Of a stretch of DNA of 64,000 bases, positions 15,936 to 44,641 are shown in pieces. The position numbers were made by a program, and so were the translations under genes. Within the stretch, counting starts at the first letter, position 1. The number at the start of each line of letters is the position of its first letter. This DNA is from Naegleria gruberi (lineage: Eukaryota). The stretch lies in assembly GCA_000004985.1 (NCBI GenBank), contig GG738869.1; one strand, written 5' to 3'. Below the pieces are notes generated by a model. The model saw only the letters and a list, made by a program, of their open reading frames with translations, was not told where the DNA came from and did not search any database.

Positions 15936-16337
15936 ATGTCATCGTGTGTTGTTTTGATTTTCAACGATTTACAATCTTCTCCACTTTTGATTGGAAAATT
16001 CCGACAACAACAAGCCCATCGACTACACACCATACGAATAGTTTATTGTCATCCCCATCATCAAGTTCCACAACTTTTGAATACTGAAACAATTGCATTG
16101 ATGAAAGGAATGGACAAAGAAAAACCAATGAGTGACCGTAAAGTACTTAATTATCCAGAAGAACATAAGCCAATGATGAAGAAATTAGAGAAATTATGTG
16201 AAAAGGTTGGAAGATTACAAGCTTTCAGATATCATAGATATTACGAATGTCATATTGGAGGTTTTGAATATGAAATTAATGCATACGGCATTGGTGGGGT
16301 ATTTTTCCTAGTATTCTACTCAGAAGGAGATTGGTAA
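15936..16337 (+). CDS. Hypothetical small protein (133 aa), no recognisable domain
   Basis: Isolated ORF in an otherwise ORF-free 1.8-kb intergenic region. I did not recognise a motif. Confidence 0.25.
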   Translation: MSSCVVLIFNDLQSSPLLIGKFRQQQAHRLHTIRIVYCHPHHQVPQLLNTETIALMKGMDKEKPMSDRKVLNYPEEHKPMMKKLEKLCEKVGRLQAFRYHRYYECHIGGFEYEINAYGIGGVFFLVFYSEGDW

Positions 16338-16523
16338 ATCATCTACTTTCAATGAATTATTGTCATTAATAAACGCTCATTGCACAGATGTTGAGCTGTG
16401 TGTTACAAAACTTTAAAAGATCGGGTTGTGGAATATTTGGGAAGTTCGTTGGAACATTGTTCCAGATTTGTTGCCTAAGATATTAATATCCTTTCTCACC
16501 CAATCATCACATCAATTATAAAA

Positions 16524-17768
16524 ATGGGACAAGGCAAATCATCTCAATCTCCAGCCACTGTTTCCGATCAGTGTTCTCTCTCACGATCACAATTAAAATT
16601 CACCTCCAAATTATTTGCAAGTTTAACCGCTTCCATGAATCATCATCATCATGATAATGATCATCAATCGAAGAAACAAGAAGAAAATGTGGTACTTTCT
16701 CCAATTTCAATTTTTATTAGTTTTCTAATGACTTTGAATGGAGCAAGAGGTGAAACTCTTGAACAATTATTTAAATTATTATCAATTGATAATGAGAAAA
16801 GTTTGGGAGAATGGCGAAATCAAGAGTTGGTTCCTTATGCGAATGGAATTATTGAATCGATTGGAAGTTCTCAAGTGTTAAAGATTGCTAATGGATTGTT
16901 TGTTGCTGAGAGAATTGAATTACAGAGCGAGTTTGAACAATTAACAAGTAACATTTTCAAATCTTGTGTGCAATCGTGTAATTTTGATAATGCTGAATCG
17001 AGTGCTGATACAATTAACAAATGGGTTGAAGAAAAGACACAAAAGATGATTAAGGGATTGGTTTCTCCTTCAGCTTTCAATTCAGAAACTTTGTTAGTTT
17101 TGGTGAATGCTGTTCATTTTCTTGGAAATTGGAAGTTGCCATTCGATCCAAATGATACTTTCGATTATGAATTCACATCTCACGTGTTTCCAAATAAGAA
17201 GATACCAACCATGAGTAAATATAATGAGAGAGTTGCTTATGGAAATGAGAAGGATTATCACTGGGTGGCATTGCCTTATTCTGATGCAAATTATAGAATG
17301 ACCATTATTACAACAAGAGAAACAGAGGTTAATGAACAAAATGAAAGAGAATTCAATAGTTGGTTCTGTAAGAAATTGGATTCTGGGAAGAGTTTGAAAC
17401 AATTATTTTCAGTTAGCTCAGAAGAACTCTCTTATATGTACATTCCAAAATTCGATATTGAATATTCAATTGATCTGACTGAGACACTATCCCAAGATCC
17501 TTTCAGTGTTAAAAATGTATTTTCCAATGCAGATTTTAGTGAAATGACAACAGTGGAAACTGTCAAAATTTCAAAAGTCATTCACAAGGCAATTATTAAA
17601 GTGGATGAATTTGGAACAAAGGCAGCTGCTGCAACTGCAATTATTGCTGAGGAAGATAATGACATTGAAGAGTTATATTTCACTGCTGATAGACCATTTA
17701 TTTATTTCATTTCTCATGTTCCATCTGGATCTGTAATCTTTGTTGGAAAATTTATTGGAATGCCTTGA
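16524..17768 (+). CDS. Serpin (inhibitory-type), single exon, 414 aa, no signal peptide
   Basis: Reactive-centre-loop hinge EFGTKAAAATAIIAEE. C-terminal serpin signature FTADRPFIYFISH...VIFVGKFIGMP. Shutter/breach segment LVLVNAVHFLGNWKLPFD. The N-terminus MGQGKSSQS matches an N-myristoylation consensus rather than a secretion signal. Confidence 0.85.
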   Translation: MGQGKSSQSPATVSDQCSLSRSQLKFTSKLFASLTASMNHHHHDNDHQSKKQEENVVLSPISIFISFLMTLNGARGETLEQLFKLLSIDNEKSLGEWRNQELVPYANGIIESIGSSQVLKIANGLFVAERIELQSEFEQLTSNIFKSCVQSCNFDNAESSADTINKWVEEKTQKMIKGLVSPSAFNSETLLVLVNAVHFLGNWKLPFDPNDTFDYEFTSHVFPNKKIPTMSKYNERVAYGNEKDYHWVALPYSDANYRMTIITTRETEVNEQNEREFNSWFCKKLDSGKSLKQLFSVSSEELSYMYIPKFDIEYSIDLTETLSQDPFSVKNVFSNADFSEMTTVETVKISKVIHKAIIKVDEFGTKAAAATAIIAEEDNDIEELYFTADRPFIYFISHVPSGSVIFVGKFIGMP

Positions 17769-18046
17769 CATCTCTCCAACTCAACTGATCTAGACGAGAT
17801 AACATGATTCAAATACAATCATTAAATTGTATCATGTTTCCATTACAAAAATTCCTTTTCAAAGTCTTTCCATGTTACAAGTTCACTGAGATTTCGATAA
17901 TAATAATATTTGGATTTTGATAACGAACTGATTGGAACAATGCGGTAATGGAAAAGAAATTTGATTTGACATTCCAGTTCATATGTTCAACTGACATTTA
18001 TTAAAACAAGATACAGACCTGTAAAAATCAACCAGAAAGAAAAAAA

Positions 18047-21000
18047 ATGTTAAAAAGTTCACTTGTTGTGGACGAGAGTGGAAAACCTGGAGTTGATGGA
18101 CACTCTGGTAGAAGGTTTGTACTTTTAATTGTTTATATTGACGTTTGGCATGCTAGTGGAACGGATGGTAGCTCAGGAAGTGTAAGTTTTGATGAGATTC
18201 GAATAAATTGATACTAAACGATGACGACAAATAGAGTGGAAGTTCAGGGAGAAGTGGTGGAAATGGTCAAAGAGGAGCAAATGGCATGAACGGAGGAAAG
18301 TAAGTTGTTTCGTCAATATTTCACAAGTTTCGAATGTATTTTGAACTTAAAAGTGGAGGAAAAGGCACAAATGGTAGTCAGTAAGTATATCTATCATATC
18401 ATCATGCAATTTAACATTAAAATAGTGGTACAAATGGAACTAGCGGTCAACATGCCAAAAACATTAAAGTGACAATTGAAGGATTAGACCACAAGTCAAT
18501 TGTTGTGAAAGGTTCTGCTAATGAAACTTTATGCTTGGATGATGGATCTGTCAGAGCTCTAGTATTCCTTGCGAATGGAGGTGATGGAGGGCAGTAAGTA
18601 TTGAACTGACATATTTGAAGTGACAAGTGACTTTTAGTGGAGGCAATGGTGGACGTGGAGGTGATGGAGGCAATGGTGGTCATGGTGGAACCGGTGGCCA
18701 TGGAGGCAGAGGACATAACGGTCCTAGAGGATGTTCTGGAGGACATGGAGGAGAGTAAGTTTAGTTTCATTTAGTTTTATAAATTTATATACTTATATAC
18801 TTTTGAAATAGTGGAGGAGAGTAAGTAATATTTTGGAAATATTTGATCACTAATTAAATGTGGCTTAGTGGTGGAAAGTAAGTTTTGGTTTTTTAGTTTG
18901 GAAATTAGAAAATTTAAAGTGGTGGAAAGTAAGTCTTTCTAATTTTAGTAATTCCATATTTATTCGAAATTAAAAATAGTGGTGGAGATGGAGGAGAGTA
19001 AGTTTCATCAATCTATTCATACAATTAACCTTCCAAAAATAGTGGTGGAAATGGTGCCAAGTAAGTTTCAAATTCTCATTCAGTCAACCAACCCTTAATT
19101 GTCAATTTTCCAAGTGGAGGAAATGGCGGAAATGGTGGATCAATCATTATCGAAACTCATAACCCATCTCTTCTGAAATTCATTCATACAGAATATCGAT
19201 CTGGAAAGAAAGGCAAAGGAGGACATGAAGGAAGTGGTGGTTACAATGGAAGTTCTGGATCTGGTGGTTCTGGAGGAAGTCCAGGATCAGGTGGTTCTCC
19301 AGGTCCTGGTGCAAGTGGTCAATCGTTACATTGTGGCCACAGTGGAACTCATGGAAGAGGTGGTCAATCAGGAAGTTCAGGAAATTTGGGAAGATGGTAA
19401 GTTGACTAGAAAATTTAAGTTGATTAAATTTTCATAGTGGAGTTGAAGGTCAGGATGGACAAGATGGTAATGAAGGAACTATTCAATTCACTGTCTTTGA
19501 TCCAGTCACTAATCAAGTGTTGGATCAAGGTAGCTCAGTGTTTGATTTAGTGGTAAATTCGTTCCAGTTGACTGCTGTTGAAGATGATGGAGTTTTTGAA
19601 CCTGGAGAAGCTGTTTTTATTTCAAATGTGAAGGTGACCAATCAAGGTGGTATGATATTGCCTATTGGAAGTGTCATTTCCTTTCCAACAAGTTTGGGAC
19701 AACAAAGTTTCGTTTCGTCTGGAGCTTTTTATATTTTACAACAAGCTCTGCATCCTGGTGAGACTTTTATAATTCCATTTCAATTTTTTGGAACTATTTC
19801 AGATACTCCAGAGCCCCAGCCATCATTGTTGGGTCATTACAAGTCAATTATGCCAATTCAATCTTTGGCAACTTTACTCACATCTCCATTCGAAACTTTC
19901 CTAAAGAATGATTATACTATTCAATATCCAGTTCAATTAGAATCAATCATTGCACCTCCTCAATTAGGAAGAACCGAAAGAGGAATCATAACTTTAAATT
20001 TTAGAAACATTTCACAAATTAATTATGGATGCAATGACAAGACTCATTTAAAGTTTAGTTTAGTCTTTGATCCAAGATTTATTGTGCATAATGAACCTAA
20101 TTTGAATGGAGTTAATGGAGTAGAAGAAGACATACCAATGATTCCACCAGGAATGACATTTTCAAGAAGTTTCCAAGTTGAAATTAATGATCTAGCTCAA
20201 TTCTTTGAAATTGTTCCATTTAAGGCAAGTTTATTCTTGAGAGGAAAGAAAATTGAAAATGCAGAAAGCATCATTAGATTAACTCCCAACTTTACCCCAA
20301 TCGCCAATCCATCTCTGAATCCATTCGATGTTTTATTCTTCACCGATAGACACATTCAAAGACCTGAATTCTTATGTTACGTCAAAATATTCGAAGGTTT
20401 AGGATTATCAATCAATATTTGGGATATTGAAAGATATGGAAGTGCTTCATTTATTAGAGGAACCACAAACAGACATCCAATTTCCTGGGTGAATGGCGGC
20501 TTTGAGGGTAAGATGATAATTCTTCCAATGCTCAACCAGGGAGATGATCAACATTTGGGAGCATCTGATATTCTACAATTATTGAGAGGACCTAATTGGA
20601 GAGATGATCATACACATGCAACGAATGGGTCTTTATTATTTGTGGGAAGTGTTGATGAGGCCAAATTTAAAAGTCGTCTCTTTTCTCCAGTTATGGAAAA
20701 GGAAATTCCTGAAAGTGAGCTAAAGGAAATGTTTCTACTCAACTCGCCAAATGATGGACATTTAGCCAAGAGAGTGAATGATTATATTCAGAAGAATTGC
20801 TTGAAAAAAGCTCAAAGTAGAATCTTTGTTTCACACAATGTCAAATATAATCCACAAAAAAGTGGCGCGCTGTCAAAGACTACTTTGGGAACAGCATTTT
20901 ACAAGGAATTACCATTGACAGTTTCAGATAATCTATTCTTTGTTCCATCAATGAGTGGAAATTCTCAAAATTTCTTGATTATTGATGCTCAGGATAATTT

Positions 21001-21694
21001 GAATTCCAATCAATTTATAGTCAATTCTAATTTTGGAAGATTGTTTTATTCAGTGATGATTTCTCTTCCATTGGAAAAGAAGTTGAAATTGTTGAGACAA
21101 CCGACAGAATGGTTGAAGAATTTGACATTTGTTGATGAAACTGGAAAGATAGTGAGCTATGTCAGTTCCATTATTCTTTCGCTTAATTATTGCATGTTTA
21201 TGGAAATTATTTATAAGGAAGAAATTGGAAGATATACCAATATTATCTTGAAAGATTTCGAATCAAACATTTCAGAATATAAGAATAATCCTCACTGTCA
21301 AGTCATTGCAGAATCATTATACTTTGTAATTACCAAATTAAGAAAAGATTTAAAGTGGAAAGGAATGTTACTCTCCAAAATCAAAGATAACAAACAATCA
21401 TTCTCCAAATTCTGCAAGCCTTTCCAAAAAACTCTCTTTTCCTTACTTGATCCAGCTCAAATTGATTTACTTAAAAAGGAAACAAAAGAAAAGATTAAGA
21501 ACATTACAACCAAACAATCATTTGCAGTCAATTTGAATTTCATTCAAAGACCACTCATTGATGATTATCATCACACATTGGAGAATCAGCTCACTAAGAA
21601 TGTATTCGATTCTGCATCGAAAGCTCTTTCAAAGAATTTCAAATTTGCTTCAGAGGAAGTTACCAAAGCAGGAGCCGAATTCTTAAATTATTAA
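18047..21694 (+). CDS. Glycine-rich / collagen-like (GXY then GGX repeat) protein with a large unknown C-terminal domain; 13 exons
   Basis: Exons are 18047-18114, 18157-18181, 18235-18299, 18354-18380, 18426-18593, 18638-18754, 18812-18820, 18869-18877, 18920-18928, 18980-18997, 19043-19060, 19115-19396 and 19438-21694. Introns are 41-57 nt with GTAAGT (one GTTTGT) 5' sites and AG 3' sites. Splicing keeps the GXY register (GKPGVDGHSGRS|GTDGSSGS|GSSGRSGGNGQRGANGMNGG...). Three consecutive exons are only 9 nt (tggaggaga, tggtggaaa, tggtggaaa). The last exon matches ORF 19517-21694. Confidence 0.7.
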
Positions 21695-21815
21695 ATAAAC
21701 ATTATTTAAAATATTGATCAAAATTTATTAAAATTCTGGTCACTTCCTAATTTGGAAAGTAATGAACTTTACAAAATCCAATCAATTTTAAATAAAAAAA
21801 ATCTTTTAAAAAAAA

Positions 21816-23261
21816 ATGTCTCTAAGCAAAATCAAAGGACCCTTTCAATTTCCATTGATCGGATCAGCTCCCTACATTTGGAGAAAAGGTGGTGTTACCA
21901 AAATGGTTCATGTATTCCGATCGTTATATCAAGATTTTGGACCAATTGTTGAATTATCGGCATTGGGAAAGAAGAGTGTTGTAATCTTTGATCCGGATAT
22001 GTATTTACAAGTGCATAGAGCATGTGGATCGTGTCCATTTGGAGCTACGGACACACTGTGGATGTTACATGCCTACTTTGAGAATCGTAAGAAATTGGAT
22101 TCTGGATTTATGAAGATGGATTATGGAAGTGGTGAGGAGTGGATTCGTGTGAGGAAGCCAATGCAGAAGGGTTTGTTTGTTCCAGAATCTTCTACGTATT
22201 ATTCTGAACATTTGAATGAAGTTTGTCAAGATGCTTCCAGGTTGATTGTAATGGAAATGCAAAAGGGAAAATCATTGCATGAATTTTTACAGAGATTGAG
22301 CTTTGAAATGGTTTCTTATTCATTGTTGGGGAAGAGGATGGGCGCTTTGACAAATGATGAGCCATTGTTGAGAGCTACTATTAGATCAATTGAGTGTGCG
22401 AGTGCCATGATGATGAGTCCAATACAGGAATATAACATGACCTTGAATACTAGATTGTGGAAAGATTGGGTCAAGAGTGTAGATTACATGTTGGAAAGAA
22501 CTGCTGAAATTATTGAAAATGCAATTCAGAGTAAGAGCAAAAAGTCATATATTGACATTTTGAGGGAAAATAATGAGTTGACAATGAGTCAAATTGTTTC
22601 AAATATTCCTGGATTAATGATGGCTGGATTTGAGACTGTGGCTTCAACTCTAAGTTGGACATTGATTCATTTGGCTCAAAATGAACATTGTCAAGCAATT
22701 TTATATGAGGAAATTCAAAGAGTTCTTGGAGATCGGCCATTCCAAAAGGATGACATTTCACACATGCCTTATTTGAAGAGTACCATTAGAGAAGTTCATC
22801 GTTTGACTCCAACTGCCTTTGCAATTCTCAGAAGAATGGACGAACCTGTAGTGATTGATAATTATGAAATCCCAGCTAAGGCATGGCTCTGTTTCAGCCC
22901 TGTTGGTATTTCAATGGATCCGAAATTTGTGGAATCTCCAGAAGAATTCAATCCTGGACGATATCTCAATAGAGTTGCAAGAGAGTGGCCACTTTTTGAT
23001 CATCCACTGATGAGAGATGGTTTCGGATATGGTCCAAGAAAATGTTTGGTATGTTTTATTACAATTTGAAAATAATTTAATATTGACTATTTCATTAAGG
23101 GTTTCCGATTGGCTGAGATGGAAATTTGGACAGTCATTGTAACATTAATAAGAGATTATCAAATATCACTAGCTCCTGGTACTAAAAAATTCGATATTGT
23201 CAATCATGCTGCAACCTATCCATCTCCAACTCCTCAATTAATATTTAAAAAGAGAACCTAA
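21816..23261 (+). CDS. Cytochrome P450, 2 exons
   Basis: Heme-binding motif FGYGPRKCL|GFRLAEMEI is split by a 51-nt intron at 23049-23099 (GTATGT...TTAAG). Exon 2 is 23100-23261 and ends at TAA. K-helix ExxR is present (TIREVHRL). No hydrophobic N-terminal anchor is seen (MSLSKIKGPFQFPLIG). Confidence 0.8.
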
Positions 23262-23376
23262 ATAGTGAAACTTGGTTCCAAAGCAATCTATTTATAAACG
23301 ACCTATCTTATAAAAATTTACCAAATATTCTCATTCACATGATAGGTCAGTAAGAGAGAAGGCTGCCTCTTAATTT

Positions 23377-25431
23377 TTAAAATATTAATTTTTTTGCATT
23401 ATACACTGATCCTACCATATACAACAAATAAACTTGAGTTGTAATTTCAATCAATTCATCATGAATTTCATCAAAGTTTGGTCTATTATTTGGATCCATA
23501 TCAACACATTTCAATCCCAAATAACGAATCTTACTAGCTTGTTTGTTGTATCTGGAAAACTTGGAACCTGTAAATAAACTATCTAAAATAGCAGCTGTGT
23601 TAGGTTTGAATTCTGTTAGGAGTTTTTGCATTATGACTCCAAAGCTGTAAATATCCAAAGATCTATCAATTAACTCTGTGTTTTCTTGTCTATTTCTCAA
23701 TTCTGGTGCAAAATAGTAGAATGGTATTTCGGATTTGATGTAAGAAACTATATCAGTTTTCTCAATATTTGGAGAAACATCAAAATCTGATAGTTCGACT
23801 TGGTGAATAATCTCTGAATCATTAATTCTAATCTTTTTGACCAACAAGTTGCTAGTTTTGATATCAAAATGAATGACATTCTTTGCATGTAAGTGTTTGA
23901 AAATATCCGAAACCTTAACAAGTGAGAATAATATTTGAAGAAGTTCTGAAAGTGTTGAGCCAGATGGAGCAGAGAAAGAATCCAATGCATCATCGAATAA
24001 TCCAATCAATTCTCCTTCACTATTTGTTGAACTATTTGGAATGATATTTTCCATTTTCTTCAATTTACAAGAAATAATTTGAGCCATCATGTAGGTGAAA
24101 TATTCTCTTTTAGATATAAAGCTAGTGAATTCAGTTTGTAAAACAAGATCAGCTTTAGATTCCAAACTAAATTGGAGATTATTCTTGAGGAATAGTTTTG
24201 GTAAAGTGTACATTGTAATGTAGTTTGCAAATGGCTCCATCTCTTCTTCAGTCAATAATTCTAATAATGATGCTACATCAACTCCGGAACCAAGTATTGC
24301 TTTGATATCTCCATTCGTTTTCTAACACATTATTATTCGAAAGTTCAGAGAAAATACAAACCTTAAAGTGATGAGCAATTAACAATCTTGTAATTTTGGG
24401 AAATCTTTTTCTTTCAGCTACTTGAATTGGTTTCTCTCCCTTTTAGTTATTGAAATAATTTAGTATATTCCATTAAAAAGAAACTTACTGGCTATTACAC
24501 TATAGTTTCTAATAAAAAATTGAAAACTTACTGGCTATTTAAAATCATTTAACAATTAATTTCTAAATGTACATACACACTGAATTGTTGAGTGATTCTC
24601 GAATATTTTAATTATAACTTACCATCTTATTCATTGTGTAAACAAAACTAATCTTGATAACTTACATTCTAGTAAGAGTTAATAAATAAATTGAAATTAA
24701 TTGAGAATACTTACACACTTTAAATAGTTAATAAATTCAAACAAATATTCAATATTCTATTCACTTACACACTGAAAATATTGTTATTTCTAATAGAAAA
24801 TAAAACTTACTCCCTAATTCATCATCACTTATTCGAAACTTTAAAATTCCAACAATTACTTACTCCCTAAAAATCATATCACTCAAATACTTTAATTCCA
24901 TTCAATACTTACTCCATTTTGGTAATCAATTTCTGGAAAACTTTTCAACAAGTATTTCACAACTTGAAATTGTTCATGTTCACATGCAATGTATAACAAT
25001 GTCCTTCCCATATGTCTATTCTTTCTTTCGGGAATGAAAACATAAAGTAGAGATTCCAGATCATTGATTCTGCACAATTCTTCAACATTTCCATGTTTAA
25101 TATGATAAACAGCTAGTAATGCATTATACATTTTGGGAAATATTTGAAAAGTTGTTATCCGTGGCTCCCATGAATTCCCTACTAGGAATCTAAATAGTGG
25201 ATCACTTGGCATTCTGAAAGGATAATTTAATGGAAATTCAAATTTAAAATCAAAGGGTTCTTCCTAGGTTTCGAATAACAATTAAATTAGAATAATTTTG
25301 ATCAAACTAACTTCATAAATTTTAAAAGAAACTGTCCATTCCGCAATATTTCCATCAGTAGCTTGTACAGAAAACCCATCATGTAATAGTTTTTTAATTT
25401 CAGTCAACTCTAACCCCACTCGTCGAAGCAT
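23377..25431 (-). CDS. UEV/UBC-fold domain + ankyrin-like segment + protein-kinase-like domain, joined through nine 3-nt micro-exons
   Basis: Exon A is 25312-25431 (MLRRVGLELTEIKKLLHDGFSVQATDGNIAEWTVSFKIYE, UBC-fold N-terminus). A 48-nt intron follows (GTTAGT..CTAG). Exon B is 24913-25263 (EEPFDFKFEFPLNYPFRMP..., no HPN-Cys so UEV-like, then LLYIACEHEQFQVVKYLL ankyrin-like). Nine 3-nt exons sit at 24864-66, 24811-13, 24769-71, 24715-17, 24666-68, 24623-25, 24577-79, 24532-34 and 24489-91, spelling GGCCNMCPP. Each is flanked by AG|NNN|GTAAGT, with 39-51-nt introns between. Exon C is 24362-24439. A 40-nt intron follows (GTTTGT). Exon D is 23377-24321 and has a kinase C-lobe (HFDIKTSNLLV, DFD, FAPE, DIYSFGVI). 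The N-lobe is degenerate. Confidence 0.55.
24483..24912 (-). repeat. Tandem array of nine about 40-55-nt intron-like units, each beginning GTAAGT/GTATGT and ending AG, separated by 3-nt in-frame spacers
   Basis: On the + strand the motif (a)acttac recurs at 24483, 24526, 24617, 24660, 24709, 24763, 24805, 24858 and 24907. The unit bodies have diverged but both splice signals are retained in every unit. Confidence 0.7.
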
Positions 25432-25729
25432 TTTTTTATAATGGAAACTTTGTAATCAGTTCAACAGATCTTTAATAACAGGGAATATTGAAGAAGGCTT
25501 GTCAGTATTAGAATGATTCAATAGCGCAACTTTATCGAAAGCAATACAATTTATGTATTATTTGATTTGTAATTGATAAACATCGGAATTAGGATTTTCG
25601 CCAATTTTATGATGGATTTCATAGCTAGATGATATTTTTGATAGAATTTAAAAAAATGCGAAAAGCTTAAATAAAATTATTAAGGATTTATTTCATCATT
25701 ATATTAGTTGATCCTCATCATGAAATCCT

Positions 25730-28700
25730 TTAAGCAAATGGAGCCCAACAAACAACACCTAGAGTGGTAGTTGTAGCAGCAGCTGTAGTCCACCACTTGT
25801 TAGTTGGAGCAGTGTAAACATAGTTAGCATAAACAACAGGACCAGAGCTTGAAGTAGCAAGATAATCAGTGAAAGCAGCAGTTGAAGTACCATCATCCCA
25901 AGTACCAGCACCAGAAGTATATGTCATTCCGAGAGGGAAGGTAATTGATTCAGCAGCTGGTAATATTGTTTGAATGAAAGTCTTTTCAGCAGCACTTTGA
26001 ATCATTACGAGTTTGGCATCCGATCTCCAATACTTGCAAATATCAGACATTACACTCTTGGTGTAGCCTGAAACAAACTTGGTGTAAATATAACAACGAC
26101 CAAGAGTGGCACTACAAGCAGTCTTACGAGCTGCACTATTTTCAACATAGGCTGGTGGTTGTGGATTGTATGGAGCAATAACACTGGCTGGACCCTTAAT
26201 GGTACCAGTAGCATATTGTGAATCTCCGAAAACACCAAAGGAAATGGAATCTTCTGTTACATCACCTTCAACAGTCAATGAGTAGGTAAAGCTTGAACCC
26301 TTAGCAATTGTGTAGACTCCTGGAGCACTTTCAAAGGAGAAACTGTCCTTGTTGGTAATTGGTTCTACACCTAGATAGACAGGGAAGTATGGATTGTAAT
26401 TATAGAAGGCATCTTGATTATAACCAGAGGCCATAGCCAAAGAGAACTTCTTGACACCACTTGGAGCACTTGATGCAACAGCAACTGTGTAATTGAATTG
26501 AGATCTGACCCAATTGGTAGACAAAATATTCTTGATAACAGATGTAGTCTTTCCCTTATAAGTGACAGTCATACCACTGTTTGCAAGTGGAACCAAAGTC
26601 TTGGTTTGGGAAGATGTGACTGTGTTACATGAGTTATCTACAACCAATTGGTAGACATTGGCAAGATTATTCCAATCGACATAGAGTGGATTGTTGGTAT
26701 CATAGTTCATTCTTTGAATTTGAACTTTACCCAAAGCACTTGTCAAACCAACACCAATACCAATAGCTAATTGTCTCCAATTCCAAATACCAGTACCAGC
26801 ATACTTGCTAACTTCAGCATTTGTGGAAACACCAGGAGACCAGGAATTAAGATCTGCTGATCTCAAAGTAGCTTCAGAACATGGATTACATCTACTACGA
26901 GAATCATTCCAAAGGCAGTTTGAGCAGTTCATTCCAGGGAATCTGTTTGATTTACAATAATTTGGAACAGAACCATATCTGAGAGGGTTGGCAGAGAAGG
27001 AGCTAGTACATCCACTACAACTACAAGGTTCTGTGGATTCACCGTCAGTTACGTGAATAATCATCTTGTTTACGATACTCTTTCTACCATAGCTTACCAT
27101 TTGGTCAATAGCAGCATTAATACCAGCAATTGAACCAGTTCCTGACTTTAATTGGGAAGCAGAGCTAATCTTGGACAAGACAACATCAACACTAGTACCA
27201 CTGTTAACTTGGAGGTGAGTAGTAATGCTTGAGGCAAACTGAATGATACCAATGTTTGTTCCAGTTGGTGAGATGTTGGAACCGAATCCCCTAGTAACGT
27301 TACCCATAAAGCTCTTCATCTTGATCCAATTTTCATCAGAAATAGAACCACTACCATCGAGGACAAAGATAATGTCCATATCAAGAGAACAAGTACAACT
27401 GGTGTATTGAACTGTTACAGTAGCACTTGATGAAGTACCATCTTGATCAGAAACAATAGTATATTCGAATTGGATAGAATCACAACTGTTGGCAACTGGT
27501 TTCACTCTAATAACTTGACTATTAGCAGGATCGTTTGGATTCAAAATAGTTGGAGTACCACTGGCACAATATCCAGTTGGACATGAGATACTAGCAAACT
27601 TGAAAGTACCACCAAGAGAATCATAATCGTTCGACAACAAGGTACTAACAGAAATGTCAACTTGGGCATTATACTTGGTAGAAACTACGTCATTGACAGC
27701 GATTGGAGGAGAAGCAAGAGGAGTAATAGTAATATTTGCAGAAACAGTAACTGGAGCATCAACATCACTATCGCTAACACCAACAATGAACCAACAAGAT
27801 GAACCAACAAAGGTTGTTTGTCTGAGGAAGCTAATCTTATTGGAGACAACAGAGATTGAAGAAACCAGAGTAGAAGTACAGGTACCTGTGTTTGTAATTG
27901 AAGTAAGCTTTAACTTGTCAGCAGTGTCAGCATCATAAGCATTAGAAACAGCCAAATAGTCAATAGTTTGTGCAACGTTGGTAGCTCTGCTTACAGAGTA
28001 AATATGGTTATAACTTGGAGCAACTGGAGCAGTATTTGGTTGATTTACGATAATCTTACAAGAAACTGTTTGACCAGCAGTATTAGAATAAGAATAAGTA
28101 GCATAACAGTTATCATTGATGCAGGAACGAGTACTATCTGCAGTATAAGTCCACTTGCTTGAAACCTTTGCAATTGTACCAACCTTAAGATTTGCAGTAG
28201 AGACAAGATTGATAGAGGCTGGTTCTGAGCCAGAAACCTTTACGAGAGCCAATCTCAAAGAATCTTCGAATTGATTAGCAGCATCATTCTTAGTGGCAGA
28301 AATGTAATAGTCGATACAGTTGAGAGCTGAACCAACAATGTTGATTGTATAAATGTAAGATGTTGTGAGTTGACCGTCTGTGAGGTAAACGTAGAATTGT
28401 TGGGTACCAATGAAAGAATTTGCATAAGTAAACTTGACTGATCCGTCAGTGTTCAAAACTACAGATGTACCAGAATTTTGATTTGGCAAGAGAGCAACTG
28501 AGGCAACAGTGACAGAATCACCATCAGCATCACTAGCACCAACCAAGAGATTGTTCAAGATTGTTGTTGGATTTGAGTAATTTCTAGTAACATTGGCAGT
28601 CTTGGAAGTACCTTGTGGTGGAGTATTGGTAATTGTAACAGAAACTTGTCCTGAAGTACTGAGTGGACCATCAGTACAAGAATAAGAGAAGGAATCAGAG

Positions 28701-38408: not shown

Positions 38409-39783
38409 TTACAAAATCATGCATTTGCCACCAGTCTTCTTTGCTGATTTGTTATCTTGCTTGAATCTTTCAGGATGCAAAACAACAGTGATGGCCAAAT
38501 TGAAACATTCCTTCAAACCAACTTGTGTCTTGGCCGAACATTCACAGTAAGAAATACAGTTGACTTCCTTTGACATTTGTTCACCCATTTCCTTAGTTAT
38601 TGGTGTAAGACCTTGTTCTTTCAATTTCTTTAAAGTGGCATCGTGTTCTCTCATGTCAACCTTCAAACCACACAAAATAATTGGAACAGCTGGACAGTGC
38701 TTACGCAATTCTGGAATCCAACGATCCTTAATGTTAGTGAATGATGATGGTTGAACAACTGAGAAACAAGCAATGAAAATTTCTGTATCTGGATAAGACA
38801 ATGGTCTCAAACGACTATTTTCAATTGTTCATCATCATTAAAATTATTAAATCAAATGGATAGAGTTAATTCACAACATTTAATATTAATATAGTAGAGA
38901 GATGGTGTAGTGTGTTAATAGTGAAGAAGAGGTGTCAAACAAATTATTATTAGAATCAAGTATGAAACTATTCGAATATTATTATTCTAAAACTTACTCA
39001 TAACTGTAAAATGTTGAAGGTTGTTAATATAATGAATAGAAATATAATACATACTCTTCTTGACCAGCTGTATCCCACAAACCTAATGACACTGTATGAT
39101 TTTCATACATGACATTGGCACAATAGTTATCAAAAACAGTTGGAACATATTCTAAAGTGGTGTTATTAGAAAGTCGTCATATTTTAAAAGCATGGTAATT
39201 AAAAGGATATCAGAAATTGATAGTATCATAACAAGATGAAGTGTAGGACTATGCATAAACAAGAAATTGTTTGTTAGAAACTTACCAGTTGGGAAGGAAT
39301 CAGTACTGTAACTAATTAACATGGAAGTTTTACCGACAGCACCATCACCTATAGTGGAAAATAATTATTTGTTATTAGAATGGTTGTTGTTGTTGTTTTG
39401 ATGGTTAGTCATAAGGTTTAGTTGTTTAAAGTGGAAAGTGGTTGATGGTGGTTTGATGTTTAGTTTACATTAATCATGATTGTGTTTTAGAGGTGAAAGA
39501 ATATTCGTTATGAATGTGAAAGATTATCGCGAAAGTCATGGATAGGGTTGAAATTGTTGTTGTTGTGGTTAGAAAGTGTAGAAATTTAACCAGAAAGTGT
39601 ACGAAACAATATTCGAAAAGGATCAAGTAAGAGAAAGCATCAAGTAATAATGATGGAAAGAAGAAGAAAATTTGTTATCATAATCAGATGGTAGAATTAA
39701 AAAATTCGAAACAAAACGGAATAATTAGAAACTAGACTAAACTTTTACATACCAACAACTACACATTTAATATTAGTATCCAT
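38409..39783 (-). CDS. Rac-like Rho-family small GTPase with CaaX box, 5 exons including a 6-nt micro-exon
   Basis: Exons are 39753-39783 ([11 protein letters not shown]), 39286-39348, 39055-39151, 38998-39003 (TTATGA) and 38409-38814. Introns are 404, 134, 51 and 183 nt with GTATGT/GTAAGT 5' sites. The spliced product reads [79 protein letters not shown]...KCMIL. The 6-nt exon supplies the conserved DYD. Confidence 0.75.
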
Positions 39784-42892: not shown

Positions 42893-44641
42893 GTGGAGTT
42901 TGTTAGGAGTTGTTTAAAAAAAATGTCTTCAAGAGTTTGCACAGCTTTTGGTCGACTTATTTCCACGCCATCATCACCATCATCACTATCATCACGATCA
43001 TCAAGAAGGAAAATTAATTCATCCTTCTTCATGTTATTATTAAATTATTTCCTTCTCATAATTTCTCTCGTTTTCTTCATCACATCAACCTCCAATTTAA
43101 TACTTGCCAAATCATCATCATCAATAATTACATCATCATCATCGGTGCAATTTAGTAGTAGTAGAATTAAAAATCATGATGTGAAGGATCCACCAAATTT
43201 TAATATTTGTCAATCAGAGGTTTCGAATCAGGTCAAGGATATGCTTTCTAATTTTCCAGCAACTTTTGGTATTCAAGTAATGGTTAATCAAACCATTGAG
43301 TTGTTTTCTTATAATCCAGATCCATTTCTTCAACCTGCTTCTAATAACAAATTATTGACAACTATTGCTGCATTGAATCATTTGGGAAGTAAATTTCGTT
43401 TCTCCACTGATTTCTTCTATGATTATAAGAATAGAAGAGTTGTTGTGAGACCAAAGGGAGATCCAACATTAACATTTGAGCAATTGCAAAAATCATTAAT
43501 GAATGTTTTGGAAAAGGTCACTTCAATGAATCCTCATGAAATTGTTGTGGATGCTAGTTTTTTCAATCCAATTCCATTTACAAATGGTGGAGATGATGAG
43601 GAATTTCCAGATTCATGGGAATGGGGAAATTTACAATATTCATTTAGTTCAGTACCAAGTGCCTTATCTTTGGAACATAATACTTTAACATTTACTGTTA
43701 AAGGTGGAGAGGTTGCTGGTCAAGGATTGAGTATTGTTTTGGATGAACCATTTCAATCATTTGCAAAGGATTTCTTTGAATTTGATACTAGTTTGAGTAG
43801 AACTTTGGATTGTTCAAATGCTAATATTATCAGTAAGGAAAGTGTCACCTCTTATTATAAACCTTTAGATAATAAGATTATTGTTAGAGGTCAATTGTGT
43901 GCAAAGAAGGAATCCAAGCAAACATTGACTGTTTTGGATACTTATGGATTTTTCTTACAAGCAGTTTCAAGTGCTAGCGCCTCTTCAAATGGTCCAAAAT
44001 CTGTTAAAATTGATTATTTGAGTGAGGAGGAACGTTCCTCCATGTTTGAATTCAAAGAGGAATGCGTCTACTCTGATAATATTCTCACAGTTATGAATAC
44101 TACACTTCAAGAGAGTGATAACATGTATGCAGAATTATTCTTGAGACAATTGGGAACTTTCATTAAGGCAAATAGTAGTTTGGACGTTTTTCCATCCATC
44201 ACCACAAGAGGAATTCAAGTTGTTAAGGATATTTTGACAAGTCAATTCAACTTGTCACCATTCACATTCTTCCAAAATGATGGATCTGGACTTTCTCGTC
44301 ACAATCTCATTTCTCCTCGTTCTCTAGTCGATGCATTGAGTGCAATCTATTACAAGGGAGCAGGTGGAGTCAGTGGTGAAACATTTGTCTCCTTATTACC
44401 TCTCGGAGGAAGGAGTGGAACTCTCAGGAATAGATTTGTTGATTTCCCAGGTATTGTGAGTGCTAAAACTGGAAGCTTGGATGGAGTTAGTTCTTTGAGT
44501 GGATATATTAGAAATGCCAATTATAGAGATCCAATTGTTTTTTCAATTATTGTTAATCAGTGTCCACTCTCTGCCAAGGAAATGCATCAAATTATTGATT
44601 CCATTGTTACCTTGTTTGCATTCATGAATCCAAAATGCTAA
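42893..44641 (+). CDS. D-alanyl-D-alanine carboxypeptidase/endopeptidase (PBP4, peptidase S13) homologue, intronless, with Ser-rich N-terminal extension and hydrophobic anchor
   Basis: All three PBP4 active-site motifs are present with PBP4-specific context: SxxK (QPASNNKLLTTIAALNHLGSKFRFST, cf. E. coli DacB PASTQKVITALAAL), S-x-N (DGSGLSRHNLISPRSLVDAL) and KTG (AKTGSLDGVSSLSGYI). The N-terminus MSSRVCTAFGRLISTPSSPSSLSSRSSRRK plus FFMLLLNYFLLIISLVFFITS is eukaryote-style. Codon usage and AT content match neighbouring intron-containing genes. Confidence 0.8.
   Translation: MEFVRSCLKKMSSRVCTAFGRLISTPSSPSSLSSRSSRRKINSSFFMLLLNYFLLIISLVFFITSTSNLILAKSSSSIITSSSSVQFSSSRIKNHDVKDPPNFNICQSEVSNQVKDMLSNFPATFGIQVMVNQTIELFSYNPDPFLQPASNNKLLTTIAALNHLGSKFRFSTDFFYDYKNRRVVVRPKGDPTLTFEQLQKSLMNVLEKVTSMNPHEIVVDASFFNPIPFTNGGDDEEFPDSWEWGNLQYSFSSVPSALSLEHNTLTFTVKGGEVAGQGLSIVLDEPFQSFAKDFFEFDTSLSRTLDCSNANIISKESVTSYYKPLDNKIIVRGQLCAKKESKQTLTVLDTYGFFLQAVSSASASSNGPKSVKIDYLSEEERSSMFEFKEECVYSDNILTVMNTTLQESDNMYAELFLRQLGTFIKANSSLDVFPSITTRGIQVVKDILTSQFNLSPFTFFQNDGSGLSRHNLISPRSLVDALSAIYYKGAGGVSGETFVSLLPLGGRSGTLRNRFVDFPGIVSAKTGSLDGVSSLSGYIRNANYRDPIVFSIIVNQCPLSAKEMHQIIDSIVTLFAFMNPKC

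Follow-up and report, generated by a model that had tools for sequence, protein, structure and literature searches.

At positions 18047–21694, on the plus strand, of a 64,000-nucleotide (nt) stretch of contig GG738869.1 (assembly GCA_000004985.1), which stretch is referred to below as the window, lies a gene whose glycine-rich coding sequence is split by a run of exons of only 9 or 18 nt. The gene appears to be an intact, expressed member of the DUF7932 family in a heterolobosean protist, and its five consecutive pieces of 9, 9, 9, 18, and 18 nt are best read as real, conserved, and constitutive coding exons, a reading to which we give a probability of roughly nine in ten. As to how such an array came about, we favor, with a probability of about six in ten, a scenario in which introns spread among pre-existing, nearly identical repeat units through gene conversion or unequal exchange while selection kept the block length constant, precise losses coming later.

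A micro-exon array in a predicted DUF7932 gene

Excision of 12 short, AT-rich GT..AG segments of 41–57 nt, all located between 18047 and 19437, yields a single uninterrupted open reading frame (ORF) of 1023 codons, and the same organization is conserved at four orthologous loci. A first-pass annotation of the window, made from the sequence alone, had already proposed these 12 mini-introns, as well as the unusual layout of exons 7–11, and both proposals hold: the five exons measure 9, 9, 9, 18, and 18 nt, all of them start with TGG(A/T)GGA and are directly followed by GTAAGT, and they jointly encode GGD GGN GGN GGDGGD GGNGAN. The gene is longer than had been thought, since its last exon does not stop short at 19437 but continues to a stop codon at 21694. 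We call micro-exon any coding exon of up to about 30 nt, and small any of up to 15 nt; exons of 9, 9, 9, 18, and 18 nt, plus two others of 25 and 27 nt, come within this definition in the window gene. Each of its micro-exons has AG before it and GTAAGT after it, i.e., consensus splice sites on both sides.

The introns start with GTAAGT in 11 of 12 cases, with GTTTGT in intron 1, and all 12 end with AG. They had been described as falling in the same codon phase throughout, which is true of 11 introns (phase 2), the sole exception being intron 2, in phase 0, with its acceptor after 18234. In the same way, the expectation that intron retention introduces stops is borne out for 11 introns, whose retention would bring a stop within 2–10 codons; in the ten phase-2 GTAAGT introns, this stop is the TAA found inside GTAAGT itself. 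Intron 1 (42 nt) has no in-frame stop, and its retention would thus leave the ORF unbroken. The gene is made up as follows.

18047–21694, plus strand: complete coding sequence (CDS) of the DUF7932-family protein, 1023 amino acids (aa), 13 exons and 12 introns, with a TAA stop at 21692–21694
18047–18114, plus strand: exon 1, 68 nt, with the ATG and the beginning of the G-X-Y stretch
18115–18156, plus strand: intron 1, 42 nt, GTTTGT..TAG, phase 2
18157–18181, plus strand: exon 2, 25 nt
18182–18234, plus strand: intron 2, 53 nt, phase 0, contains TTCGAA
18235–18299, plus strand: exon 3, 65 nt
18300–18353, plus strand: intron 3, 54 nt, phase 2
18354–18380, plus strand: exon 4, 27 nt
18381–18425, plus strand: intron 4, 45 nt, phase 2, not found in the other four orthologues
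18426–18593, plus strand: exon 5, 168 nt, coding for the first strand-rich segment (strands in the orthologue model) and the start of the GGX block
18594–18637, plus strand: intron 5, 44 nt, phase 2, at a lineage-specific position
18638–18754, plus strand: exon 6, 117 nt, GGX repeats with a visible 9-nt period
18755–19114, plus strand: micro-exon array (introns 6–11 and exons 7–11)
18755–18811, plus strand: intron 6, 57 nt, GTAAGT..AG, phase 2
18812–18820, plus strand: exon 7, 9 nt, TGGAGGAGA
18821–18868, plus strand: intron 7, 48 nt, GTAAGT..AG, phase 2
18869–18877, plus strand: exon 8, 9 nt, TGGTGGAAA
18878–18919, plus strand: intron 8, 42 nt, GTAAGT..AG, phase 2
18920–18928, plus strand: exon 9, 9 nt, TGGTGGAAA
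18929–18979, plus strand: intron 9, 51 nt, GTAAGT..AG, phase 2
18980–18997, plus strand: exon 10, 18 nt, TGGTGGAGATGGAGGAGA
18998–19042, plus strand: intron 10, 45 nt, GTAAGT..AG, phase 2
19043–19060, plus strand: exon 11, 18 nt, TGGTGGAAATGGTGCCAA
19061–19114, plus strand: intron 11, 54 nt, GTAAGT..AG, phase 2
19115–19396, plus strand: exon 12, 282 nt, which completes the GGX block and also encodes the conserved 'SIIIETHNPSLLKF' strand and another glycine-rich stretch
19397–19437, plus strand: intron 12, 41 nt, phase 2
19438–21694, plus strand: exon 13, 2257 nt, intron-free, coding for the C-terminal two-thirds of the protein, which are conserved and include the DUF7932 domain

In the 60 kb of sequence counted, 11 of the 19 GTAAGT hexamers of the plus strand fall within the 1.2 kb between 18182 and 19397, for about 0.44 expected there from base composition (Poisson P ~2e-12). 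Furthermore, 11 of the 12 introns use the same one of the nine possible positions in the G-G-X unit (binomial P = 3e-10), and a chance origin of the intron pattern is excluded because of this clustering together with the shared position. A decaying pseudogene, or an artefact of assembly in which GTAAGT..AG would be incidental, is also extremely improbable: the spliced ORF is intact over 1023 codons, the same structure is found in four independent assemblies, and the clustering of GTAAGT is itself at odds with this explanation. The opposite strand of the gene has no plausible gene, just a 107-aa low-complexity antisense ORF, and a search of positions 16000–26000 against Rfam matched no RNA family.

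The protein family and its glycine-rich block

Judging from its sequence, the product of the window gene is a full-length member of the DUF7932 family, which is eukaryote-wide. The Pfam profile DUF7932 (PF25560) matches aa 309–435 over all of its 130 positions (E = 4e-14, 53.6 bits versus a cut-off of 27), and a profile search with the C-terminal 750 aa retrieved 440 family cluster representatives, 76 of them at E <= 1e-30. Proteins of Naegleria lovaniensis (XP_044550565.1, annotated as 'DUF7932 domain-containing protein'), N. gruberi (XP_002679508.1), and Willaertia magna belong to the family, as do others from sponges, bdelloid rotifers, liverworts, and a Vannella transcriptome. The window protein is co-linear with the family over its full length, including the glycine blocks, the conserved strands, and the C-terminal region. 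In the family, the glycine-rich layout consists of G-X-Y runs followed by a strand-rich segment, a GGxGGx block, and the strand I.T.DP.LL, and an alignment of 30 family sequences showed the GGxGGx blocks and this strand to be common to members; the glycine-rich part is thus a conserved family feature and not a free-running repeat. Between the two conserved strands, the glycine block measures 75 aa in the window protein, for a family median of 73 and values that nearly all lie within 63–76; the single-exon gene of the sponge Oopsacas also has a block of 75 aa. Without the micro-exons, the block would be reduced to 54 aa, versus 75 aa with them.

The gene had first been described as collagen-like. 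A collagen identity was considered and rejected, as Pfam Collagen (PF01391) gives 24.0 bits, under its gathering threshold of 27.2, and the family is DUF7932. The term fits only the composition and triplet period of the protein, in whose translation perfect G-X-Y runs can be read at aa 12–70 and roughly aa 255–295, with GGX blocks of the same period. In an AlphaFold2 model of the N. lovaniensis orthologue (mean pLDDT 80.6), the glycine blocks reach a pLDDT of about 90 and form neither helix nor strand, being set between beta-strands. Foldseek matched Ig-like sandwich domains alone (transglutaminases, integrins), in the middle of the protein and with a low TM-score that implies no function, and comparison of the glycine block with sequences of the PDB gave low-complexity matches only, among them the snow-flea glycine-rich antifreeze protein at E = 0.86.

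Conservation of the array among heterolobosean orthologues

Four orthologous loci were modelled: L001 (a JGI metagenome contig), L002 (N. lovaniensis), L003 (an ENA metagenome contig), and L004 (an N. gruberi-like contig). The C-terminal region of L001 is 50% identical to that of the window protein, while the product of L004 is identical to the deposited N. gruberi protein at 998 of 1007 positions. The deposited N. lovaniensis protein, which comes from a BRAKER1 annotation with RNA-seq (PMC6125883), maps exactly onto L002 with exons of 9, 9, 9, 9, and 18 nt. The sizes in nt of the exons lying just upstream of the I.T.NP.LL exon are given below.

Window: 9, 9, 9, 18, 18
L001: 18, 9, 9, 18, 18
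L003: 9, 9, 9, 9, 18, 18
L004 (N. gruberi-like): 18, 9, 9, 18, 18
L002 (N. lovaniensis): 9, 9, 9, 9, 18, 5

In a five-way alignment, the micro-exon block is gap-free in four of the five genes, and the five introns flanking the final two 9-nt exons and both 18-nt exons occupy identical columns, in the same phase, in all five. Outside of the array, the phase-0 position of intron 2 is used by all five orthologues; that of intron 1 is common to L001 and, within one aligned residue, to N. lovaniensis, and that of intron 12 to L001 and N. lovaniensis. The counterpart of exon 2 measures 25 nt in L001, L003, and L004 and 28 nt in N. lovaniensis. Between species, the four core micro-exons agree at 41–50 of 54 nt (76–93%), with a conserved Gly-Ala that undergoes synonymous GCC/GCT/GCA change, whereas the orthologous array introns resemble each other no more than shuffled sequences do (z = -1.8 to 2.8).

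The orthologues also differ from each other in several respects. Some differences concern single introns, one being absent from the window and another from L001 and N. gruberi, and these look like precise intron loss. Others concern whole modules, N. lovaniensis having one 18-nt unit less. Intron positions in the first glycine block vary between lineages, nearly all of them being in phase 2. Among the more distant family members, the gene of Willaertia magna lacks micro-exons, its 3 introns lying elsewhere, that of Oopsacas is intronless, and that of L007 has an uninterrupted glycine block. Because these three genes have no array, the latter is specific to one heterolobosean orthologue group, and the shared positions within that group place it already in the common ancestor of the window organism, Naegleria, and two uncultured relatives. 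When metagenomes were scanned for relatives by means of the C-terminal alignment, there was no match.

Constitutive use of the micro-exons is favored because exons are conserved and introns are not, because the block has a length typical of the family, and because the RNA-seq-guided N. lovaniensis model includes every micro-exon. The micro-exons could alternatively be optional cassettes, so that the number of GGX units would vary or the whole array be skipped. Such cassettes would find a parallel in the Schistosoma micro-exon genes (MEGs), which have a comparable tandem layout (PMC10526429), and all donor–acceptor combinations are compatible with the reading frame. In addition, the deposited N. 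gruberi protein XP_002679508.1 is shorter than the product of L004 by exactly one 18-nt unit (GGNGGN); the 99%-identical L004 has this micro-exon, bordered by good splice sites, and its lack in the deposited protein could be due to an exon overlooked in annotation, to a difference between strains, or to an alternative isoform. However, full skipping would give a block of 54 aa in a family where it spans 63–76, and neither the conservation of the micro-exons in five lineages in spite of their divergent introns nor the complete N. lovaniensis model is what one would expect of optional exons, and we therefore regard cassette use as improbable. Two points nonetheless detract from constitutive inclusion: for the window mRNA, the inclusion of each micro-exon is deduced from conservation, and the single phase would let any donor of the array join any acceptor in frame, making some exon skipping possible.

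Proposed splicing mechanism and features of the mini-introns

Each mini-intron is likely to be recognized as a unit, i.e., by intron definition, via its near-invariant intronic GTAAGT, a strong signal that is fully complementary to the 5' end of the U1 small nuclear RNA (snRNA). Since coding dictates the sequence on the exon side of the donors, recognition would have to rest on the intron. As a 9-nt exon is too short for two assembling spliceosomes, neighboring introns would probably be removed sequentially, each splicing event lengthening the flanking exon for the next one. Unspliced copies would terminate at once, because the phase-2 GTAAGT puts TAA in frame, as can be read directly from the sequence, and the prematurely terminated transcripts may then be degraded.

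Two other features of the mini-introns were observed. The palindrome TTCGAA occurs inside several of them, in many cases immediately ahead of the 3' splice site (..TTCGAATAG|). Three of the 12 window introns (those starting at 18182, 18300, and 18929) contain it, as do intron K2 of the 3-nt-exon chain described below and 8 of the 14 introns of L004, for an expectation of about 0.2 per 600 nt; L001 introns have TTGAC or TTGAT in its place. TTCGAA may be a lineage-specific branch-site or 3' element. Moreover, intron length is divisible by 3 in 9 of the 12 window introns, including all six introns of the array (P ~0.004 taken alone). This excess is probably due to chance, since the four orthologues do not show it (17 of 55 introns).

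Origin of the array

It had been suggested that an exon-plus-intron module was duplicated in tandem, so that introns would have multiplied by duplication rather than by insertion. The existence of near-identical adjacent modules in L001, and of module gains or losses between orthologues, agrees with the first half of this proposal, while the dissimilarity of the window introns and the greater age of the repeats do not; as for the exclusion of insertion, the data do not support it. Duplication cannot have built the repeats themselves, because the glycine block is of family-typical length even in the intronless sponge gene, and sequence comparison rather points to introns having entered, or spread within, pre-existing repeats. 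We therefore favor a scenario in which the GGX repeat block would be older than the introns, and an intron arisen at one unit would have reached the same position in neighboring, near-identical 9-nt units via homologous exchange, that is, unequal crossing-over or gene conversion copying the module. Unit gains would have been offset by unit losses under selection for a constant block length, and occasional precise intron loss would account for lineage differences. As expected for a collagen-style amplification of an exon-plus-intron module, the array exon lengths are multiples of 9 nt (9n), all in phase 2, in the window gene and its four orthologues.

More direct indications come from intron sequences, which were compared all-against-all for 53 introns of four orthologues (1378 pairs), the 14 introns of the fifth orthologue being compared among themselves. 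In L001, two adjacent modules made of TGGTGGAGA and the following intron (introns 8 and 9) match nearly base for base, a terminal indel aside, with similarity scores of z = 7.1 and 9.75 (among 300–1378 intron pairs). Since each of the five lineages has introns at the two positions, this likeness corresponds to a secondary homogenization, i.e., to later copying between units, and the pair shows that module copying between units does operate. Also in L001, introns 1 (940–976) and 3 (1101–1141), which lie at different anciently conserved positions and in different phases (2 and 1), have an identical core of 14 nt, ATCATTGTGTTGAC, with z = 5–8.5; this suggests a transfer of sequence between non-adjacent introns. 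Only these two L001 pairs, 8/9 and 1/3, stand out among the 1378 pairs, and no introner-type intron family was found there or among the 14 introns of the fifth orthologue.

Each intron may, on the other hand, have been gained independently at a short site that recurs in every GGX unit (..GGA RA|TGG..), whether by reverse splicing, DNA-break repair, or a mobile intron, which would give the same phase with neither duplication nor exchange. The equal block length of intronless homologues, which makes the repeats older than the introns, fits this explanation, as do the mutual dissimilarity of the window introns and the fact that positions in the first block vary between lineages yet are nearly all in phase 2. 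However, the A|T site is not the canonical AG|G, although the glycine-rich CDS offers 7 AGGT and 35 AGG sites: none of the 12 junctions is of the AG|GT proto-splice type, the contexts found being AG|TG, GT|AG, AA|TG, CA|TG, GA|TG, and TG|TG. The introns of two other micro-exon genes of the window, the Rac gene and the chain at 24.5 kb (see below), have a different exon context, and this, together with the use of RA|TGG in place of AG|G, is in favor of exchange. Finally, parallel insertion accounts neither for the exchange between units seen in the near-identical L001 modules nor for the lack of an introner-like family of similar introns. It is still a live rival, to which we would give about one chance in four. 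A further possibility, namely the creation of introns by tandem duplication of an AGGT exon segment, was rejected, there being no AG|GT junctions, the introns being unlike the coding repeat, and the direct repeats of the window array spanning the exon and splice consensus only, not the intron bodies.

Several observations nevertheless weigh against spread by exchange. The window introns have no significant similarity to each other, the best pairs (z ~4–5) corresponding to the chance tail of 1378 comparisons and the pair formed by window introns 8 and 9 reaching z = 2.4, and duplication is for this reason unreadable from the window locus. In L004 as well, introns of neighboring modules are not recognizably homologous. 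Glycine codon usage is equal in micro-exons and long exons (Fisher P = 0.66), so that the likeness of the micro-exons reflects codon bias and protein constraint, not recent copying. The step of spread by exchange comes down to one clear pair in another species and to positional regularity, and the L001 8/9 pair could equally be the product of gene conversion between introns that arose independently.

Other micro-exons and context of the window

Micro-exons had been expected to recur in this genome, and within the window they do. In the Rac gene (~38500–39350, minus strand), a 6-nt exon, TTATGA (39003–38998), is located between introns of 51 and 183 nt (38815–39054) and is required to spell the invariant switch-II motif of the Rho family; the spliceosome of the window organism evidently handles exons that small. 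On the minus strand at 24440–24912, ten GT..AG mini-introns of 39–51 nt are separated by nine 3-nt 'exons', which read, in order, GGA, GGA, TGT, TGT, AAT, ATG, TGT, CCA, and CCA, identical triplets often being adjacent. This chain belongs to a kinase gene of 497 or 506 aa (CDS from 25431 to ~23377), in which Pfam matched the kinase domain only; judging from the translation, it lies in a loop of an ankyrin-like segment, and the ORF stays open whether the nine triplets are included or left out. The best intron pair is that of adjacent introns K1 and K2, flanking GGA/GGA (z = 3.3), and a search for homologues of the gene carrying the chain found none.

The DUF7932 gene and 24440–24912 are the only dense GTAAGT clusters of the window, which is otherwise intron-poor. 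It is tempting, if speculative, to generalize and to suppose that heterolobosean genomes undergo intron proliferation at the DNA level by local copying of micro-exon-plus-mini-intron modules, unlike introner transposition, with a spliceosome that routinely joins exons of 18, 9, and 3 nt; the DUF7932 array would then be an old product, and the 24.5 kb chain a young one, of the same process. Should module copying be true, dense intron arrays would arise in otherwise intron-poor genomes.

The neighboring genes are mostly single long ORFs, encoding DUF4116 kinases, a BTB protein, a serpin, a P450, and an S13 peptidase. The latter, at 42893–44641 on the plus strand, is a single-ORF D-Ala-D-Ala carboxypeptidase (Peptidase_S13, E = 1e-57) and, being in a eukaryotic chromosome, a candidate for bacterial gene transfer. 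Positions 1–424 of the window consist of about 70 tandem CCCAAA units, i.e., telomere-type TTTGGG on the other strand; short ATGATG-rich repeats follow near 670–730, and a run of N (assembly gap) starts near 950 and ends at ~5000 according to the composition profile and the ORF list. Because of the CCCAAA array followed by an assembly gap, the window is taken to lie at a chromosome end.

Comparison with known systems

How new spliceosomal introns originate continues to be debated, and there are few clear natural examples. In the present case, an old array of 9- and 18-nt exons, module copying in a relative, and a nearby 3-nt array coincide in an intron-poor genome. The DUF7932 array thus offers a compact system in which to oppose intron spread by homologous exchange to targeted insertion, as well as a test of how an intron-definition spliceosome deals with exons shorter than its footprint. 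It also has a practical side, since prokaryote-style gene calling on metagenome contigs fragmented the genes that bear the array. Naegleria gene models containing the array are already public, and full-text literature searches returned no article dealing with micro-exons in Naegleria or other heteroloboseans, or with DUF7932. What sets the present case apart is the runs of 9-nt exons ~45 nt apart in an intron-poor protist, in a large conserved protein that is not of the secreted type, with a structure kept in at least five heterolobosean lineages.

Schistosoma MEGs use their micro-exon layout for product variation. Their exons are 3–81 bp long (PMC10526429) and, as in the window gene, very short symmetric exons follow each other in tandem, with lengths that are multiples of 3 and hence a frame that is kept in any joining. 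They differ by their long introns (up to 5 kb), by micro-exons that make up most of the CDS, and by their small secreted products, whereas the window gene has introns of 41–57 nt, only 63 of its 3069 coding nt in exons of 18 nt or less, a large conserved protein, and an array that is conserved and not variable. In plants, conserved micro-exons of 15 nt or less are easily missed by annotation and are mostly single, within longer introns (PMC8831610); the window gene and its orthologues have instead three or four 9-nt exons in tandem, with introns of ~45 nt, in an intron-poor protist genome.

Genes have been documented to gain introns when part of their DNA is duplicated, in tandem or segmentally, with no mobile element involved; such introns are made from duplicated exon sequence between two AG|GT sites (PMC3265369, PMC4974935, PMC2891723). 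In the window gene, by contrast, an existing intron would be duplicated along with its micro-exon; there is no AG|GT junction and the introns are unlike the coding repeat. Introners form recognizable sequence families, and many introns can accumulate through them, locally or throughout the genome, in an otherwise intron-poor lineage. The window array is similar to them in its local accumulation of introns, but has no family of mutually similar introns.

Fibrillar collagen genes, lastly, are built of 54-bp exon units, for which the classical explanation is the amplification of an exon-plus-intron unit; their exons, of 45–162 bp, begin with a whole Gly codon (phase 0), and the introns between them are long. 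The window gene resembles them in its Gly-triplet repeat, in exons that are multiples of 9 nt, and in the use of one phase, and differs in that its introns split the X codon (phase 2), its array exons are of 9 or 18 nt, and the protein is not a collagen.

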